This document shows positions 2,480-35,261 of a stretch of 38,113 nucleotides of DNA, piece after piece. This DNA is from Nemertoderma westbladi. Its lineage: Eukaryota > Animalia > Xenacoelomorpha. The stretch covers positions 1 through 38,113 of the forward strand of contig JAUCBJ010008768.1 of NCBI GenBank assembly GCA_032718475.1. The letters are read 5' to 3'. Below the pieces are notes generated by a model, which ran no database searches, was not told the origin of the DNA, and saw nothing but the letters and a program-made list of their open reading frames with translations. Positions within the stretch are counted from its first letter, which is position 1. The number at the start of each line of letters is the position of its first letter. The position numbers and the translations under genes were made by a program.

Positions 2480-3773
2480 ACACTAGAAAGAAGTGATTCC
2501 TGCTTACTGGTGTTGTAGTGGTTCTGTGTCGTGGCTCTTGTGGTTGTAACTGCGGGTGAAGTATACTTTTAGGAAATTTCCTTGAATAAACATATTTCCG
2601 GAAAACTCACATCCCTAATCAAGTTGTGCAAAATCGCGCATTAAGCAATGATGCGACATACACGCTCAGGACTCATTCTCATTTTTCCACCAAGGCAATG
2701 GAATCTCCGCTTAAGTACACCAAAACTTCGTTCTATCACATTTCTAGTAGATTTATGTGATTTATTATATCGCTCTTTAGAAACGTTAGCGGGTACTAGC
2801 AGCAGCGGTGTCAGTAACCAACAGCGGTTCGCGTAACCACTGTCTCCTAGTAGAATACCTCTACGTCGGCCTGATTCAAAATCCATCCCAATCCTGCTGT
2901 TCTTCAAAATTCTAGAATCGTGTACGCTGCCGGGCCAGTCTGCCACTATATCTAAGAATTTACCATCTGCATCACAGATAGCCTGCACATTGATGCTATA
3001 TGTAGTAGCCATGCCTGTTGATGTAATAACTACTCTGATCTCCACATGGAGCTTGAATTTCTACATGGGTGCCATCGACTGCACCCACTACTCCTGGAAA
3101 TCCAGCGACTAAAAAAAAGTTTTCTTTGAGTTTCAGGAGACCTTCTTCGTTTCTTGGCATTTGGACAAATTCGTTTATGTGTTTAATTAAAACATTCGTC
3201 ACACGATAAATAGTTTTACTAATAAATTCTACATTGCGCAATCTTTAGGCTGGCTGTCAATCATCAAGTTGGCCAACCAATTATAATTAGTAACACTTCA
3301 ATATCTGCTATATCTAGTAGAGTGGCTCAAGTTGGTACCAAGTTAATAAAATATCTTCAGCACAAATTGGTCGCATTCGAAATCAGCATTGGTTTATTGT
3401 TTTGGTTAGAAAACACAGCCACTGTAACATGCCCCTCTCCTTCAATATTTTACATTCTTTTTTTAAACCTAATAAATACAAATTGTTTGTCTATTTATCT
3501 ATATATTTTTGCCGCGGGTTGTTCTAGAACATTAACATATATGTCAATATCTCCATAAAAATAGCTAGTAAAAAAATTCAAAATGAGGAGGAATATTCCA
3601 ATATTCCAGGAATATCCCAATATTTTACAGAGGATTTAAAATGCCCTGTAGTGGCTCCGTAGGTACCGCTCTTAAAATTCAGTATCGTTATATACTTGTA
3701 GTGGGTTGAGTTTGATGTTGTTTACTCTCGATTTTCGTCGATGCCTATTTATAACAACTGGAACAAAAGCCAT
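2480..3773 (-). pseudogene. HARBI1-like (DDE_Tnp_4) transposase pseudogene
   Basis: N-terminus MAFVPVVINRHRRKSRV..NPLQVYNDTEF*ERY from ATG at 3773. Core motifs GFPGVVGAVDGTHV, SINVQAICD, WPGSVHDSRIL, LLGDSGY, R-NVIERSFGVLKRRF, then IIA*CAILHN. It carries in-frame stops, a frameshift near 3000-3045, and unrelated sequence at ~3240-3660 in place of the HTH region. Confidence 0.9.
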
Positions 3774-5069: not shown

Positions 5070-5623
5070 CCTTACACCTGCGCAGTGGATAGTGTGAAAG
5101 CCGCCTTACACCTGCGCAGTGGATGGTGTGAAATCCGCCTTACACCTGCGCAGTGGATAGTGTGAAAGCTGCCTTACACCTGCGAAGTGGATAGTGTGAA
5201 AGCCGCCTTACACCTGCGCAGTGGATAGTGTGAAAGCCGCCTTACACCTGCGCAGTGGATGGTGTGAAATCCGCCTTACACCTGCGCAGTGTATAGTGTG
5301 AAAGCTGCCTTACACCTGCGAAGTGGATAGTGTGAAAGCCGCCTTACACCTGCGAAGTGGATAGTGTGAAAGCCGCCTTACACCTGCGAAGTGGATAGTG
5401 TGAAAGCCGCCTTACACCTGCGCAGTGGATAGTGTGAAAGCCGCCTTACACCTGCGCAGTGGATGGTGTGAAATCCGCCTTACACCTGCGCAGTGTATAG
5501 TGTGAAAGCTGCCTTACACCTGCGAAGTGGATAGTGTGAAAGCCGCCTTACACCTGCGAAGTGGATAGTGTGAAAGCCGCCTTACACCTGCGAAGTGGAT
5601 AGTGTGAAAGCCGCCTTACACCT
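5070..5623. repeat. 34-bp minisatellite, 16 units, with higher-order structure
   Basis: Unit CCTTACACCTGCGCAGTGGATAGTGTGAAAGCCG; variant order A B C D / A B C' D D D / A B C' D D D. Confidence 0.95.
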
Positions 5624-5849: not shown

Positions 5850-6420
5850 AATTATCGTTATATCCAGTGAACAAGTGAAGGATTCAATCATGGCTCTAAA
5901 CAAAAACAAGGCTGCCGACTATTTTAAGTTGAAGGCGGAACATCTAATTTATGGTCTGTCTGATACACTTTGAGACTACCTGGCATTTGCTTTCAATACC
6001 ATGAGAGCAACTGCAACATGTCCAAAAGCACCTGGTGAAAAATTGGTCATCCCAACCTTAAAAGATTTACATCGAAATAAATATCAACAAAAACCAGTTA
6101 TGACCAATATCTATTGTAATGCTGATTGCGAAGGTTTTGGAACTACTTGTGTCTTGGGAACTTCATTAACCCTGGATCTTAAAATTAATGACCTATAAAT
6201 GGGCTATAGGAAAAACATTAAGTACTGGACTGACATATGCTACGGTCAAGAGCCTGAGTGATTTGTTCAATAAAAAGGGTTCCGATATTTATATGTTAAC
6301 TTTAGATCTTACCGCAGCATTTTATACGGTGAGTTCTGTGAAACTCTTTCAAAAGCTAGGCCAATCGGGAGTAGAGACAAATCTCCTAAAATCACTCAAG
6401 AACTACTATATGGTCAAATG
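5850..6420 (+). pseudogene. Degenerate LINE reverse transcriptase fragment
   Basis: ISSEQVKDSIMALNKNKAAD..LKAEHLIYG (pre-RT domain 0) and IYMLTLDLTAAFYTV..KLFQKL (RT domain 3-like), broken by stops and frameshifts. Confidence 0.75.
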
Positions 6421-6451
6421 GTCATCTGAAAAACTATCAAGACATGACCAT

Positions 6452-6673
6452 AACATGTTAGCTATTTATTTTTTAAAAAAAATTATGTTCTAGAACAAAT
6501 ATTTTTTGTTCTATAACATTTTTTAGAAAAAAAATCTGGATTCTATTTAAAACGCATGGAATCGTTCTAAAACGTGTTTTAAATAGAATCCAGATTTTTT
6601 TCTAAAAATGTTCTAGAACAAAAAATATTTTTTCTAGAACATAATTTTTTTTAAAATAAATAGCTAACATGTT
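6452..6673. repeat. AT-rich hairpin/foldback (~100-bp arms) of the GTTCTAGAAC/TAGCTA dispersed family
   Basis: 6452-~6553 is nearly the reverse complement of ~6575-6673, with a loop of ~20 bp. Related arms lie at 28330-28450 and 28950-29075. Confidence 0.85.
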
Positions 6674-8129: not shown

Positions 8130-8329
8130 CGATGTTAGGACAATTGCGACCCGGTCAATTGCGACCCGGTCAATTGCGACCCGGTCAATTGCGACCCGGT
8201 CAATTGCGACCCGGTCAATTGCGACCCGGTCAATTGCGACCCATGATTTTAGAAAAAATTTATGGGTCGCAATTGACCGGGTCGCAATTGTCCGGGTCGC
8301 AATTGTCCGGGTCGCAATTGTCCGGATCC
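8130..8329. mobile_element. Small foldback MITE built of 15-bp repeats
   Basis: 7 copies of CAATTGCGACCCGGT (8141-8242), a ~20-bp AT spacer, then 4 inverted copies (8264-8322). No clear TSD. Confidence 0.75.
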
Positions 8330-8628
8330 AGATAAAAAGATTTAATGTATATCATTGATAAAAATCATTGTATCATTGTGACTAATGTGAAGAATGGCAA
8401 CGATACGGAGGGTGCGATTTCCCAAAAGACACTTTTTTATAACGCTGATAAAAAAAAATTATAGGCAAAATAAAAAATTATGGCTTCATGCGGACATCGA
8501 CGGTGAGTTGAACAAGTTGTGATTCAAATTTCAAGCAATATAATAATAGCAATAATATATTCAAGTTTATAAGAAGTAATGTACATATGAAATAATGTAA
8601 AGATCTATACAGACACTAAATATACCTA

Positions 8629-10255
8629 ATGTGTATCAAACTTTCATCGAATAGTCGTTGTAACTTGGTTATTATCTGCTCAGTACTCTGTGGCCTGATT
8701 GGAGTATGGGCCATCGGTATGATTGTGTTCGGACTCTATGTCAACTTCAATGTTGTGCGAGGGACACACCTTATTCGCGATTACAATGCTCGTTCCTTTA
8801 TCGGGCTCATTCTATCCATAGGAGGTATTAACTGTATCACTACAATCATTGGATTCGTAAGTCTGTTTAGATACATCAATGAGAACAAAATTCGAGGGTT
8901 CACCAACGAATTACCCAGTCTTAAGTTGTTGAAGAGTTACCATATTAACCTTGTAATCATCACATTGTGGTTTCTCTACTTTGTGACTTGTTGGTTAACT
9001 TTAGCTGTCGCTATAACTTCATTAACTCATGTAGATGAGGTCGAGAGAGCTTTCAATATCGGCATAACGCACGCCATCACGGTATACATGAAGGACGTTG
9101 GGGCGAAAGTGGACATAGATGCGTTTGCAGGTAGATTTTGAGTGCTGCGGTAGCAATAATTACAGCGATTGGTTGGATATAGAGTGGGCAGATAAAGGAA
9201 ATTATATGATGCCATTCAGCTGTTGTAATTCGTCGGTTTTACGGCCATGTGTTTTAGAAGTAAACAATCAAACAACTAACTTGACGATTTTTTACCAAGA
9301 AGGGTGCATGCATAAACTTCGGGAATATTGGGAGCTACGGTTGGGCCCATTCGCTATTCTCGCATTCATAATGTTCATGACACAGGCGGGTCTCGCAACA
9401 TCGCTCCGATATCTCCAGACATCGATCCACAGCGCGTTGAAGCGAAGAAGTTGGAGAGAACCGTCCAGAGGTTATCTTCTTGCCACCCCTGGAGCCGAGG
9501 TATCTGTGCAGGTAAAGGCGACGAAAATCGAAGGGGAAGTAGTCGAATTGGAACTGTTGGTGAGCGGAGATCCATTGGTTGAAAATAGTGACATTAATAC
9601 TGGGGATGAAGATAAAGTGGCTGATTTTAAGCTGGAAGAGTGCGCGGCACCTAAACCATCCCCAACATCTACAAGTCATAAGGGCGCCCAACCAGCTCGT
9701 AACAACCCTACAACACCCCCTTTACCTAATAGCATCCCCGAATCACCCACTCAACCCATTAACATCCCAACACCAACCCCTTTACCCAATAGCATCCCCG
9801 AATCACCCAGTCAACCCATTAACAACCCGACACCACCACCTTTACCCAATGGCATCCTCCAAGCACTCCCTCCACCTGCAGACATCCCGCAACCACACCC
9901 ATCACCCACCAAACACCGGCTAACAGATCCTAACATTCCGCAATCACCTCGTGTATCCTCTAACAACAACCCTACATCGCCATTATTGTCTCACTACCAA
10001 AAAAAACCCGCTGCCATCGTTCCGGTATTGCCCCCTGCACCGCCTGTTGGTAAAATGCCCGGCACTCTTCGCACAGAGATCAAGGACATTAATAAAGATT
10101 TAAAACCAAAAGAGGAGCAGAAGAAAGAGTATGAACAATTGGACAATGAGCGAGACTCACTTCTTCACAAGACAATACAATCCCGGAGATACGCACATGG
10201 GGCATCCAGTGAGACATTACTTGATAATGATGAGGATGAGGTATCGTTTAGTTAA
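8629..10255 (+). CDS. PRPH2: Intronless peripherin-2/ROM1 (RDS)-family tetraspanin with a proline-rich, WCA-like C-terminal extension; one 1-nt frameshift at 9124-9126 (~541 aa if corrected)
   Basis: Three hydrophobic helices lie in ORF 8629-9141 and TM4 in ORF 9119-10255. Large-loop motifs ID.LQ.DFECCGSNNYSDWLDIEW, PFSCCN...RPC and GC are present, with the post-TM4 LRYLQTS...SRGYLL signature typical of PRPH2/ROM1. Deleting one T in GCG TTT GCAG joins the two ORFs. The symbol denotes the family, not proven orthology. Confidence 0.85.
9701..9890 (+). repeat. Coding 60-bp (20-aa) tandem repeat, 3 units plus a partial one
   Basis: NNPTTPPLPNSIPESPTQPI / NIPTPTPLPNSIPESPSQPI / NNPTPPPLPNGILQALPPPA starting at 9701, 9761 and 9821. 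Confidence 0.9.
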
Positions 10256-10432
10256 GTAAAAACAAACAATAATTATTGAACATTCATTAACAATTTATGC
10301 AACAGATATTCAATTTGTGGCGTTATTTTAATTAGTTAAAACGGTAAATTTCGACACTTCTTGCTAACATTTTACTATAGAATATCTAAACTGCAATAAT
10401 AACTATTTATTATATTGTGTATCAAGTAGGAC

Positions 10433-11599: not shown

Positions 11600-14110
11600 A
11601 AATTAAAACTATACTAAAAAAGACAATAAAAGGAGAGGGTACAAGTTAATTTAAATTCGGCATCTCAGGTAACTATCGTATACCTGAGATCCGTTAAAAC
11701 ATATACAGCTAGTATTAATTAAAATATAATTTTGCGAGTTGGTAACACGATTAAATAAACTAAATAGTGAAAAGCGTCGGATATGTACAATTGATTTAAG
11801 GCCAAGAGAGACCAGCATACCACTAGCACTGTCATCGCGTTTAAAACCAAATAAACGTCGCACTGTGTTGTTATACGCTACATTTAATCGATTAAGGCCC
11901 CCCTCACACGGAGCAACTTGTTTCTGCAACTTGTTTCTGAAACTTGTTGCTGGACCCCCTCACACACAGAAACTTGTTGCTGCAACTTGTTTCCGAAACT
12001 TGTTTCTGTGTGTGAGGACTCCAGCAACAAGTTTCTGCAACTTGTTTCCGCAACTTATTTCTGTGTGTGAGGGGGTCCAGCAACAAGTTGCTGGAAGTTA
12101 TATTCCCAGCAACTTTTTGAAAAACTTTTATTACATTCCATTTTGATACTAGCTAATATTAGATAATTTGAGTGATTTGATATTATATACAAATGACTGG
12201 ACATGTTAGCTATTTATTTGGAAATAATTGTTATTTTCTTCAGCAACAAGTTTCTGTGTGTGAGGGGGTCCAGCAACAAGTTGCTGAAACAAGTTGCAGC
12301 AACAAGTTTCTGTGTGTGAGGGGGTCCAGCAACAAGTTGCTGAAACAAGTTTCGGAAACAAGTTACAGAAACAAGTTGCAGCAACTTGTTTCTGTGTGTG
12401 TGGGGGTCCAGCAACAAGTTGCTGAAACAAGTTTCGGAAACAAGTTGCTGAAACAAGTTGCAGCAACAAGTTTCTGTGTGTGAGGGGGTCCAGCAACAAG
12501 TTGCTGAAACAAGTTTCGGAAACAAGTTACAGAAACAAGTTGCAGCAACTTGTTTCTGTGTGTGAGGGGGTCCAGCAACAAGTTTCAGAAACAAGTTGCA
12601 GCAACTTGTTTCTGTGTGTGAGGGGGTCCAGCAACAAGTTTCAGAAACAAGTTGCAGCAACTTGTTTCTGTGTGTGAGGGGGTCCAGCAACAAGTTTCAG
12701 AAACAAGTTGCAGAAACAAGTTGCTCCGTGTGAGGGGGGCCTAAGAGTTGACTCACAAAAATAGCTGTCAGCCCAAAGAGCATTACAATAAACATTAGAG
12801 CAATAAGAAATAAACAATTGTAGCTTTACATGGGGAGAGCAGTGAAGTTCCTGAAGGTCCTAATAAGCAAATTAGCACGTGCGTAAAAAGATCTAGTTTG
12901 GTTCCTAATATCAGTATCATCCGAGAAATTAGATGTGATATAGTGACCGAGACATTTATATTTAGGAACACATTCAAGCACAACACTGTCCAATACGATC
13001 ATTGTATTAGAAATTGTTAAACGGTGAGAACTGTGTAAAAATTTACATTTAGATTTCTTAGCATTAAATGTAATGGAGTTGCAATACGCATAATCAGAAC
13101 AAATGTCAACAAGTGATTGTAAGGCACTAGGCGACGTAGATATAAGACATATATCATCCGCATAAAAATAATGATTGACAACTACATATCCAAGTCGTGC
13201 GCCGAGCACACAGCTAGATAATTGTACACTTAATTTATCATTATATAGATTGAAGAAGTAAGGAGCCAATATGCTTCCCTTTGGAGCAGCCATAGGGATA
13301 AAGGGACTAAAATAAATATTAAGACGATTAGATGAATATAAAATGTGCTCAGAATAAATAAAATCATGTTCTGCCGCCTTATTTAACTTTAGCTCATTGA
13401 TAGCGGTAGTAATTTCATTAGGAGACACAAGCATATCAATACTAAATTGCACATTGGAAACTGCAGCATATACCCGTTACGAGTCGGGTGACTGGTCCGG
13501 TTTAACTTAATTAAATATAGATTCATATTTGTTGGCCGACATTCCGCATACTTCAGCGGATCCAACTGCATCATCCGCCGTGTTAGGCGGTGTAGAACGT
13601 GTGGTTGACTGAGATTTAACATTATTCCAGAATTTCTTGCTGTCCCTGTCCTCGCTAGATAATGACTCAACTAGACGGTTGGATCGAGTCTGAGACTCTG
13701 CCTTTCTACACTGACGGAGTGCCAGCTTAAACTGCGCCTTCGCCTTGAGAACCTGTTGGTGCAGCAATCCAGACTTCGGACTTCCAAGTTGTCGCCACAG
13801 CAAAAACAGCTCCCTTGAATGAGAATACTTGGAACGAACCATCTCGTTCCAACCAGGAATGTGTTTGTGCAGCCTGAGTGGTTATCTCGAAGATTAATGG
13901 TTTGGGGAATTGTGTCACAGAGTCTGCAGACCGCATAGCATTCACAATATCATTGTAAAATTTATCAATGTTGGCAGTGTGTTGTGAACAGTTTGCAGTA
14001 GTGCAATTGATGGCAGACCATGGAACTGGTACTTTCCGCAGAAGTTCATCGCACTTATCAACATAGGCAAGTTTAACTTTATCAGTAGCCTTTGACCAAA
14101 TCTTACTGTT
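11600..14110 (-). mobile_element. 5'-truncated, internally deleted LINE (RTEX/L2-like ORF2 remnant) interrupted by a MITE
   Basis: PGWNEMVR..SRELFLLWRQLGSPKSG..FKLALRQC, LKLNKA..IYSEHI, KGSILAPYFFNLY, YADD, KYKCLG, FYARANLLIRTF and VAYNNTVRRLFG..SASGM. Multiple stops and frameshifts; RT domains 1-3 are missing. Confidence 0.9.
11896..12741. mobile_element. PIF/Harbinger MITE with internal TIR-derived tandem arrays
   Basis: Long perfect TIRs starting GGCCCCCCTCACACGGAGCAACTTGTTTCTGCAAC, with TAA at 11893-11895 and 12742-12744. The interior is made of CAGCAACAAGTT / TCTGTGTGTGAGGGGGTC modules. Confidence 0.92.
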
Positions 14111-30959: not shown

Positions 30960-33670
30960 AATTATAGCATAATACATATAGTCGCATAGTTACATACAAT
31001 CACATATAGTTAAATAATATGTTAATACAGCAAATAAGCACAGGGAATAGGAGCACAAATAGTATTTAGTTCGACATAAGTTATGTAATTGCAAGTATGG
31101 GTATTGGTGGGCATGCGGCACATTGTAGTACATGATATCGCTGTGGGCAAGGTAGTAAACAGTAGCTGCAGTAGCAGAGTGGTGAAAGTGTGTGGAAAGG
31201 CTTTTCGTTTGTACAGAGTTTATGGTAAAAACCGTGGTCGGTCGTCCTGACAATGATGTGTCGGTTTGTCTGTTTGGCCAGTTTCCATGTAGATGTAGTA
31301 AATGACGGTCCCATTTCGTAGAGTTCAGAAAGAAAATTATTTTCTCGGTCCTGTCTAAATTCATGGTATTTTTCAATTACACCAGTGTCAAAAATGGTTG
31401 GATATTTTAGTAAAATGTCAGCAATGAATGTTTTCTCCCTGAGTAGGTGCAGCGCCAACGTCGATGAAGCTGATATATATAGACATATATAGATATACAG
31501 CATTCTCTTTATGTGTGTTGTTTTAATTCGGTCTATTTCCTTTAGGTGTGAGAGCTTAAGAAAACGAGCGAATATGGGAAAGGCATATAGGGCAATGGGT
31601 GCAATTTTCATGTGAAATATTCTTAGACCTGTTTCAATGGAAACGAGCTGCAAGTTTGTTATTGATGCAATAATCCTATAGCACTTTTTCTTTTTCGATT
31701 TTATGTGTTCACTGAAGCTGAGTGAAGTTTGTACTGTTACCCCCAGATATTCATACTGGTTGCAGATTGGTACGGTTTGACCCCCGTAAGTAAAGTTATC
31801 AGTACAAGCTAGGTGGCCTCCTTTGCGAAATTTAATTATCTTTGTCTTGTCCATATTAACTTCCATATTATTGTTTATACACCAGGTGTGAGTTATTTCA
31901 AACAAGTCATTTCCTATCCTCTAGGTTAGCTGATTGTAAGGCTGTGGCTATGAATGTAAGTAAGATTTGTATGGCGTGGGAACAAGATCTGCTAGGTCTG
32001 AATCCGAACTGCTCGTCAGGAAAAAGTTGTGAAACAAACAAACGTGCACGAGTATTCATTATGGAAGTAAACGTTTTTAACAGAACTGAAATCCCCCTAA
32101 TAGATATTGGGGTTGTTTATTGCTCCCTTCCCTTTGTAAAGAATCATAATGAGGCTTTCTTTCCAAATAAGCGGTATCCGTCCTAAGTTGAGACACGCGT
32201 TGTATAAAGTCACCAGTATCGTTAGGATAAACGGAATTATTAATTTAAGATGCTCGTAGTAAATCCCGTCTAAACCATTGGATTTCCCATTTGCGGAATT
32301 GTTAATGCTGGCTGTAATTTCATCTTCTGTTATAGGCGAGTTAAACCATTGTTCATCTTGTCGTTCCTCAACAGAGGTTGAAGGAATGGTTGGCGGGTTT
32401 GGGGGGTCAATGGCGGCTCCGACTAAGTTTTGAAAGTGAACCGGGAGTGTGGCTGAGTCAATGGGCGCGACTGTCCGTTTATGCTTCTTGAAAATTAGCC
32501 ATGGCTTGGTCTCAGAACGATCTATCAGAGCCAGTAGCATTTCCTCGCTGTGTGCCTCGCGTTTTCCTTTTATTAACGATTTATATTGTTTGCGAGTATC
32601 CCAGTTGTAGTACTGCTTGTGGAGATCAGAGTTATTTCTAGAACGCATTGCAGAAACCAGTTGGCCTTTACGAGTCCTGCACTCTTGGTCGAACCAAGGT
32701 TTGCCAGAGCGAGAAGGTTTTTTAGCAGGTGTTGAGTCGGTTATTGTCTGAGTTAGTATGTCGGTTGCCCCATTGATATCTGAGCGGTTTAGTTGTTCCT
32801 GTACTGTATGTAGGTTTGGGTGAGTCCGAAACCTTTCTATATCAATTTTCCGAGATAATTGTGGTCTCTCAACAACAGTGCGTGGGTGGGGGAAGTGTAT
32901 ATTAGAGAGTTCTAAAACTGCAGAGACAGCCTGGTGCTTTCGTACTGGATTATTTACAACAGTTGCTTCGGGAAGTATCTGTGGGACTATGCCTGGGTAT
33001 TTAATAAAAATAAGGTCAATAGTGCTTTCCCCCTGGGGAGAAATGTATGTAGAAACATCCGGATTGTTTAAACAAAGGAAACCTGACATTGTGCAGTTCG
33101 TCGGATAGCTCCGTACCGCGAGTGCCGGAGTCCAACCGGCAGTTAAAATCCCCTGAGATAATATTGAAAGGCTGGGGTCCGTGTGAGAGAGGGTGTCATA
33201 TATTGTTAGAATAATTTCCTCCAGAGGGATGTCAGGCGGTAAATAGAGAACGATAAAATATGCGATTAATGTTTTGATAATGATGTATGTAGCAGCCTGC
33301 TTGATGCTGGAAGGATTTAAATGCGATTTGCATAAAACCATAAGACCCCCCGATGGACGTCCCCTAGTTGGTTTGACAGCTGCCTCTGAGAAGCAGTAGT
33401 AATTGGTGGCGTAATGTGAGACATCAGTGTATAGAGTTTCAGTCAGGAGCACTACATCTGCGTTGCTATAAAGTTCAGAGTCGGTCAGAGTGTCTGCTAA
33501 ATATCGAAGTCCCTCCACATTCCATAATCGAACACATACCTTTGTGCTCCGATCCTAGTCCCTGTTGCTAATCTCCGTATTCCTCTGTGTATTTCCTCCA
33601 TCCGTGTTACCGGAACTCTCGCGTTGTTGAAGACGCAACTCCTGTTGGTCTTGTTCACTGAGTCGATAGT
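30960..33670 (-). mobile_element. LINE (APE endonuclease + RT + C-terminal Cys/His domain) with the end of ORF1; defective
   Basis: WNVEGL, LLTET, GRPSGGL, YLPP, out-of-frame GDFN, STIDL, KPWFDQEC, GLDGIYYEHLK, LYKGKG..NP, EQFGFR, then a jump to WC..N.MEVNMDKTK..FRKGG, YEYLGV and HGFYHKLC..CYCSYC..HVLQC. The RT catalytic core is absent. Confidence 0.93.
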
Positions 33671-33733: not shown

Positions 33734-34113
33734 CTAGTGGGGAGGAGTACGGAACTAGTGGGGAGGAGTACGGAACTAGTGGAGAGGAGTACGGAACTAG
33801 TGGGGAGGAGTACGGAACTAGTGGGGAGGAGTACGGAACTAGTGGGGAGGAGTACGGCACTAGTGGGGAGGAGTACGGAACTAGTGGGGAGGAGTACGGA
33901 ACTAGTGGGGAGGAGTACGGAACTAGTGGGGAGGAGTACGGAACTAGTGGGGAGGAGTACGGAACTAGTGGGGAGGAGTACGGAACTAGTGGATAGGAGT
34001 ACGGAACTAGTGGGGAGGAGTACGGAACTAGTGGGGAGGATAACAGAACTAGTGGGGAGGAGTACGGAACTAGTGGGGAGGAGTACGGAACTAGTAGGGA
34101 GGAGTACGTAACT
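33734..34113. repeat. 21-bp G-rich minisatellite, ~18 units
   Basis: Unit CTAGTGGGGAGGAGTACGGAA. Confidence 0.95.
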
Positions 34114-34234
34114 ATTTTTAGATACTATTTTTTTTAAATGTAGCTAGCAGATATAGCTAATATTCTAAAAAAATATTTTCAGTGTTGCTTAAACATTAAC
34201 ATCAATAACATAATACCAAAAAATAAAAATTAAA

Positions 34235-35261
34235 ACAAAATGTAGCCACGGGCGGAACTATAAGAACAAAATGTAGCCACGGGCGGAACTATAAGTACAA
34301 AATGTAGCCACGCGCGGAACTATAAAAACAAACAAAATGTAGCCACGGGTCGAACTATATGAACAAAATGTAGCCACGGGCGGAACTATAAGAACAAAAT
34401 GTAGCCACGGGCGGAACTATAAGTACAAAATGTAGCCACGCGCGGAACTATAAAAACAAACAAAATGTAGCCACGGGCGGAACTATAAAAACAAACAAAA
34501 TGTAGCCACGGGTCGAACTATATGAACAAAATGTAGCCACGGGCGGAACTATAAGAACAAAATGTAGCCACGGGCGGAACTATAAGTACAAAATGTAGCC
34601 ACGCGCGGAACTATAAAAACAAACAAAATGTAGCCACGCGCGGAACTATAAAAACAAACAAAATGTAGCCACGGGTCGAACTATATGAACAAAATGTAGC
34701 CACGGGCGGAACTATAAGAACAAAATGTAGCCACGGGCGGAACTATAAGTACAAAATGTAGCCACGCGCGGAACTATAAAAACAAACAAAATGTAGCCAC
34801 GGGTCGAACTATATGAACAAAATGTAGCCACGGGCGGAACTATAAGAACAAAATGTAGCCACGGGCGGAACTATAAGTACAAAATGTAGCCACGCGCGGA
34901 ACTATAAAAACAAACAAAATGTAGCCACGGGCGGAACTATAAGTACAAAATGTAGCCACGCGCGGAACTATAAAAACAAACAAAATGTAGCCACGGGTCG
35001 TACTATATGAACAAAATGTAGCCACGGGCGGAACTATAAGAACAAAATGTAGCCACGGGCGGAACTATAAGTACAAAATGTAGCCACGCGCGGAACTATA
35101 AAAACAAACAAAATGTAGCCACGGGCGGAACTATAAGTACAAAATGTAGCCACGCGCGGAACTATAAAAACAAACAAAATGTAGCCACGGGTCGAACTAT
35201 AAGAACAAAATGTAGCCACGGGCTGAACTATAAGTACAAAATGTAGCCATGGGCGGAACTC
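34235..35261. repeat. 31/35-bp minisatellite, ~32 units, with a 128-bp higher-order repeat
   Basis: Unit ACAAAATGTAGCCACGGGCGGAACTATAAG(A/T). Four variants (31+31+35+31 bp) recur in order. A degenerate two-unit copy is at ~27265-27326. Confidence 0.95.

Follow-up and report, generated by a model that had tools for sequence, protein, structure and literature searches.

The window, by which we mean the whole 38,113-nucleotide stretch of Nemertoderma westbladi DNA that was analysed, most likely carries on its forward strand one intronless RDS/peripherin-type tetraspanin gene, a single frame of about 541 amino acids at 8629-10255. The portion that encodes the membrane-spanning core comprises the following features.

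8629-9123, + strand: N-terminal half, with the likely start ATG at 8629, TM1-3 and the start of EC2, without an intron (translation, hydropathy, collinear alignment to RDS-like proteins)
About 8650-8757, 8794-8868 and 8941-9027, + strand: TM1, TM2 and TM3 (hydropathy, translation)
9124-9125, + strand: a single surplus base in the window, causing a frameshift and left out in sequencing runs X1, X2 and X3
9126-9340, + strand: EC2 loop with CCG, PFSCC, RPC and GC, six Cys in all (Pfam Tetraspanin, PRPH2 match, alignment)
9341-9487, + strand: TM4 and the LRYLQTS and GYLL juxtamembrane motifs, an RDS-like hallmark (PDB match, hydropathy, alignment)

The frame encoding TM1-3 and that encoding EC2, TM4 and the tail differ in the window, and the two overlap over 9119-9141. 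An intron at this place is ruled out, since both halves align gap-free and the reads are simply one base shorter. The surplus base is missing from all three runs that cover the site (X1, X2 and X3, from two samples and two studies), cover being listed there for three of the four runs and not for X4. Because the X1-X3 contigs each lack one base at 9124-9125, we infer a single intact frame, and the frameshift in the window likely stems from misassembly or from a rare allele. Farther downstream, one X4 DNA contig covers 9392-10466 with one difference from the window and none within 9392-10330, and because this single contig spans both the end of the TM4 core and the tail, the two are physically joined in real DNA. 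The first-pass annotation had described a frame running about 275 amino acids past LRYLQTS, and translation bears this out, with 276 codons after the motif and a stop at 10253-10255. Such an open frame is more than a product of chance.

In the rest of the window we found mobile-element remains alone, including DDE transposase and LINE-like reverse transcriptase/endonuclease frames at 2641-3060, 6170-6493, 12826-13476 and 32097-33554; the transposase remains we take to be of Harbinger type. Several minisatellites are also visible (5070-5623 and 33734-35260 among them). A palindromic high-copy element, in which a 15-bp unit is arrayed twice in opposite orientations, lies at 8141-8325, roughly 300 bp ahead of the ATG, and high-copy DNA extends from it to near 8600.

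Family placement of the tetraspanin core

Hydropathy yields three plus one TM segments over the two frames, and with the CCG-bearing EC2 loop these give the four-TM architecture of a tetraspanin. The C-terminal half matches Pfam Tetraspanin (PF00335) at E 1.9e-14 and 54 bits (cut-off 32), and the N-terminal half matches it weakly (E 0.33). In a PDB search with the C-terminal half, peripherin-2 (E 4.3e-12) and ROM1 (E 6e-7) both came ahead of CD63, with 7zw1_A and 7zw1_B as the best chains. The alignment also places the six EC2 Cys in the RDS-lineage register (CCG/PxSCC/PC/GC), followed after TM4 by RYLQTS..G(Y/W)L. These best matches, cysteines and post-TM4 motif support the earlier assignment to the peripherin-2/ROM1 family. 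A quick tree of 33 rows, for which the 32 relatives were picked by hand, sets the protein on the RDS side with an SH-aLRT of 100 and on a long basal branch, and an AU test (p 0.517) leaves room for placing it among the 14 other tetraspanins instead.

The protein is no more than 28% identical to any relative in the trees, and its EC2 is about 20 amino acids shorter than that of most relatives. The insert that bears C150, a residue described in PMC7140794 as required for higher-order PRPH2 complexes, is absent from the window protein and from all five invertebrate-type rows of the alignment. A search of 1.84 billion representative proteins gave 91 matches with E values up to 0.001, none of which reached 1e-10; it yielded no close relative, and no best stretch extended past query residue 211. 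A word-based search with the whole C-terminal half found none among 3227 candidates at E 0.001 (lengths 207-662 only). An RDS lineage in invertebrates has already been reported (PMC2965184). By its sequence, the gene is most likely a strongly diverged new member of a known RDS/peripherin subfamily.

The tail compared with WASP-family activators

It had been proposed that the tail has the Pro-rich-W-C-A layout of a class I nucleation-promoting factor (NPF), with segments resembling WH2, the WASP/WAVE central helix and an acidic A. All of the motifs quoted in support of this proposal lie in one frame (LRYLQTS at 9404-9424, PPLP at 9716, PPPLP at 9833 and LPPAPP at 10028), and the three segments are located as claimed, the last at 10205-10252.

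9647-10054, + strand: low-complexity tract rich in Pro (30%), Ser and Thr, with no Pro run above PPP and with 10 SP/TP sites (composition count)
10055-10111, + strand: proposed WH2, a predicted amphipathic helix plus LKPK (pattern score, single-sequence AlphaFold2)
10109-10195, + strand: predicted continuous charged helix, residues 331-359, including YEQL and the C-like segment (single-sequence AlphaFold2, pTM 0.27)
10151-10198, + strand: C-like segment, with two of three helix hydrophobes, an RR doublet and a terminal Tyr (pattern score, WAVE3 comparison)
10205-10255, + strand: acidic end with Phe at -2, then the stop (sequence)

Single-sequence AlphaFold2 places helices at residues 317-327 and 331-359 and coil elsewhere, at low confidence (pTM 0.27). 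That the W and C segments are predicted to be helical is what a degenerate but true WCA module would lead one to expect, and yet the predicted helices cannot tell the readings of this tail apart.

The proposed WH2 agrees with six of the ten positions of the WASP-family pattern published in PMC3298513, against ten of ten for WAVE3, and 289 of 300 locally shuffled tails score 6/10 or more somewhere. Among the positions it misses are the helix's second hydrophobe and, in LKKT, the third and fourth places with the final T/V/A, and some of the missed positions are ones that PMC3298513 ranks as most conserved. Read contigs carry T319K and K322T inside the segment; residue changes within it are found in two of three samples, and K322T, which loses one more pattern position, is in all X1-X3 contigs examined. 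Proline at the third LKKT place is known in some WH2s outside the published pattern, but the Lys at the fourth place is a miss regardless. Pfam WH2 was not found in the tail fragments, whereas three of three WAVE3 controls matched it (E 6e-8 to 4e-6). The WH2 likeness is at chance level, and the identification of this segment as a WH2 is not borne out. In another RDS-like tail, the last 85 amino acids of P0029 score 8/10 on the same pattern, above the window tail, and contain neither C nor A.

The C-like segment fares better. Of the five features sought there, hydrophobes at i, i+4 and i+8, a basic doublet and a terminal hydrophobe, it has four and WAVE3 all five. It shares TI.SRR.A with WAVE3, six of eight positions being identical, and carries Arg at the first hydrophobe position. 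The likeness to the WASP/WAVE central helix is partial, and together with that of the acidic end it beats shuffled sequences only mildly. Counted by hand, the spacing from LK to SRR to the aromatic residue is 27 and 22, compared to 25 and 21 in WAVE3. As for the acidic end, at least five acids in the last 16 residues and the penultimate Phe are present as described; this feature is of low specificity, since two of 40 RDS-like tails also have an acidic end with W or F in their last four residues, and the Phe is preceded by Val-Ser rather than by acids. Phe in place of Trp does have precedent, in invertebrate WHAMM and acoelomate WASP (PMC3298513).

When W, C and A were scored in order, the tail reached 12 of 17, a value that shuffled tails reach at p 0.001-0.019 and that is matched by none of 90 other tetraspanin C-termini and none of 930 overlapping windows from 23 RDS-like tails; the scoring windows were chosen after the sequence had been seen. 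C and A alone give 6 of 7 features (p 0.002-0.027), equalled by 4 of the 930 windows, all in one protein. Smith-Waterman alignment of the tail to the WAVE3 VCA returned p 0.003 with full shuffling and 0.015-0.027 with local shuffling, and all of these W-C-A and alignment p-values ignore that the case was picked for its likeness from a very large scan. Against an HMM of 44 fish WAVE3 ends the tail scores 3.6 bits, which 1.1% and 4.8% of shuffles reach and which one of 91 unrelated natural C-termini exceeds, and the HMM aligns just the linker and C. We conclude that the C and A likeness appears modest and mildly above chance.

Other searches gave no link to WH2 or VCA sequences, although the WAVE3 controls were found. 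With the tail as query, the PDB yielded no WASP-family chain, those returned all being unrelated with E values from 0.8 upwards, whereas the control found WAVE1, WAVE2 and N-WASP. BLASTP of the tail against the WAVE3 VCA gave nothing at E 100; a word-based protein search with residues 306-378 found none among 18 candidates at E 10 (lengths 207-662 only); and no homologue that keeps the C-A segment appeared in either the 1.84-billion-representative or the word-based searches. The ESM Atlas offered no usable match to the tail, while the WAVE3 control retrieved WH2 clusters at 0.88; a blank in this resource means neither absence nor novelty. The WAVE seed search gave 1596 matches, and nearly all of the 120 listed were fish WAVE3; the VCA profile contained fish WAVE3 alone, so that a match to a divergent invertebrate WASP or WHAMM tail could be missed.

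The proline-rich tract is present as had been described, with its 30% Pro, but it owes much of its length to a 60-bp unit repeated 2.6 times in tandem at 9700-9857 and has no polyproline runs. Compared with 85 WAVE3 proteins, its longest Pro run is 3 (median 6) and its SP/TP sites number 10 (median 2); runs of four or more are absent from the window tail, against a median of three such runs in WAVE3.

One reading of these data is that the tail is a degenerate true WCA that binds G-actin and weakly activates Arp2/3, making the protein a membrane-anchored NPF, possibly through capture of a WAVE-like 3' end. The NPF idea stays as a rival because the C and A likeness beats shuffles and the Phe-for-Trp exchange has precedent; the order and spacing of W, C and A are right, and clustering would be provided by tetraspanin oligomers. 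Against it stand the deficient W and C segments, the Val-Ser before the Phe, the near-background HMM score and the post hoc selection of this case from a large scan. WHIMP, which is the weakest NPF of mammals and likewise lacks polyproline, still has a WH2 that BLAST detects and a Trp at -3 (PMC7112243). Overall, with a chance-level W, no profile match, no polyproline and a changeable tail, the class I NPF layout is unsupported at the level originally claimed; what resemblance there is to activators of actin branching is incomplete and probably coincidental for the most part, and we regard this reading as unlikely.

A more modest version places function in C and A only. The tail would then bind Arp2/3 or actin without delivering monomers, and would recruit or damp branching at the membrane in the manner of HPO-30. 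That the above-chance signal lies in C and A, and that the WAVE3 HMM aligns only linker and C, agree with such a role, but the equal scores in one RDS-like protein and the failure of any homologue to keep the segment do not, and we likewise hold out little expectation for it.

Actin genes themselves gave a separate observation. Those designated L013, L022, L036, L024, L028 and L043 share 82-90% identity with animal actin over their aligned parts, and L038 is more divergent and was left out of the alignment; all seven lie on long contigs labelled Cyanobacteria/Microcoleus, Myxococcota or other bacteria. L012, L014, L015 and L019, on short contigs, resemble animal contaminants in assemblies of bacteria.

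Variation, repeats and the tails of relatives

Variants in the reads distinguish core from tail. Synonymous changes make up 14 of 22 in the core and 2 of 11 in the tail (Fisher p 0.026), or p 1.4e-4 and p 1.0, respectively, against an expectation of 25%; the numbers are small, sites in shared codons were counted separately, alleles and the duplicate copy may be mixed, and the counts cover listed variants only, with 35 further rows outside them and 7 paralogue-contig rows dropped. Among the listed variants, then, the core is under purifying selection. Those in the tail are mostly amino-acid-changing and sit in the Pro tract, W and linker. None of those listed changes an amino acid in C or A, which speaks for function in these two segments alone, tempered by the 35 rows outside the count. 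Neither a stop nor a frameshift is among the variants listed for the tail.

The read contigs also reveal a repeat of a whole block of the tail.

9861-10248, + strand: in-frame tandem block of 405 bp, 135 codons, comprising the whole Pro-W-C-A (X1-X3 contig joints)

In X1, X2 and X3 contigs, position 10248 is followed by 17 new letters and then by 9861, an arrangement that neither the window nor X4 shows, X4 having a single copy. The block belongs either to some haplotypes or to a paralogue. Read by hand, the upstream copy has Leu at the place of the window's terminal Phe, which counts against a conserved A segment; on the other side, a 135-codon repeat recalls the tandem Pro-VC repeats of Trichomonas WASP (PMC3298513), as a degenerate WCA might. 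Another tail variant departs after 9900. Loose read-contig ends at 8694, 8829, 9225 and 9441 have patchy matches of about 80-90% identity, and indicate that the species has further, more distant RDS-like paralogues, likewise without introns.

Such changeability raises the alternative that the tail is near-neutral filler grown by in-frame repeat expansion, or that the gene is a decaying retrocopy whose frameshift is real in the assembled individual, as the tail's neutral proportion of synonymous variants, its repeat origin, the varying copy number of the block, the setting of an intronless gene amid mobile-element debris and the lack of listed X4 cover at the frameshift (X4 being identical to the window over 9392-10330) would allow, but the constrained core, the three of three covering runs without the frameshift, the intact tail frame among listed variants and the divisibility by three of both repeat units (60 and 405 bp) make it improbable.

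A motif filter for RDS-likeness passed 40 of the 91 database matches, one of which (P0047) was probably included falsely, judging by the tree. The named members come from molluscs (scallop), amphioxus, echinoderms (sea urchin, crinoid), a hemichordate, leech, arthropods (cockroach, scorpion, insects) and a horsehair worm. Among these 40, the tail is at least 100 amino acids long in 21 and at least 200 in 10; PPP or longer occurs in 7, YxxPhi in 20 and an acidic end with W or F in 2. Because 21 of 40 tails reach at least 100 amino acids and Pro, acidic and Tyr motifs recur among them, a long Pro-rich acidic tail is ordinary in this subfamily. In many invertebrate peripherin-like tails (P0002, P0007, P0013, P0020, P0026, P0035 and P0080) there are repeated tyrosine motifs of the EPIYENI/EPIYANI type in an acidic context, which we take to resemble phosphotyrosine docking sites. 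Phosphotyrosine docking is possibly the real shared function of such tails.

Proposed function and comparison with known systems

Taken together, the family motifs, the repeat origin and variation of the tail, the chance-level WH2 and the missing profile matches favour the interpretation that an RDS-type core clusters in a membrane and shapes or organises it while the tail serves as a fast-changing docking and phosphorylation platform, not as a self-contained Arp2/3 activator. We consider this likely. From what is known of the family, the core would oligomerise through EC2, without the C150 disulfide link, and organise or shape membrane. The repeat-built, disordered cytoplasmic tail would dock partners, a role predicted from motifs alone. 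PPLP and LPPAP are candidate sites for SH3-, WW- or EVH1-type partners, the 10 SP/TP sites are putative targets of proline-directed kinases, and YEQL, a YxxPhi-type motif at 10130-10141, may serve an adaptor or SH2 partner; all of these motifs are short and frequent by chance. Judged by eye, the tail C-terminus matches neither WIRS nor PDZ motifs. Any actin link of a docking tail would be indirect.

Most likely, therefore, the window adds one more divergent invertebrate peripherin-like gene to a subfamily that, outside vertebrates, commonly bears long variable tails. The bolder proposal is that a degenerate WAVE-like WCA, single or doubled in tandem, was gained by a peripherin-type tetraspanin, which became an integral-membrane Arp2/3 activator joining rim shaping to branched-actin pushing. 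We doubt this strongly. If it were true, one protein would do jobs that in vertebrate photoreceptors are split between PRPH2 and PCARE/WASF3, and a tetraspanin with a built-in nucleation-promoting module would serve as a model in which a single protein couples the curvature of a membrane to actin pushing. The vertebrate side of that parallel holds up in the literature, where PCARE and WASF3 are described as driving photoreceptor disc formation (PMC7211956, PMC10041111). Neither a tetraspanin with a WCA nor a functional study of long invertebrate peripherin-like tails was found in the literature searched, which left most subscription journals outside.

With PRPH2 and ROM1 the window protein shares four TM segments, six EC2 Cys and the LRYLQTS and GYLL motifs, but it differs in its shorter EC2, in the missing C150 insert and in its tail, which measures 283 amino acids from LRYLQTS as opposed to about 80 in two vertebrate-type matches. 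The invertebrate 'peripherin-2-like' proteins resemble it in the core and also in having long tails of low complexity that carry acidic, Pro-rich and Tyr motifs, although these tails cannot be aligned to that of the window and its W-C-A score sets it apart from the other tetraspanin C-termini.

The WAVE/WASP class I NPFs present the same order of elements at similar spacing (Pro-rich tract, helix plus LK, charged linker, TI.SRR.A, acidic aromatic end), but WAVE3 differs in its complete WH2 and C, its polyproline and its ready detection by profiles. Finally, the claudin-like four-pass protein HPO-30 of C. elegans has a disordered tail that binds the WAVE complex and F-actin (PMC10411975). By description it is likewise a four-pass protein with a disordered tail that acts on actin, but it belongs to another family, and its role is to recruit an NPF, not to act as one.
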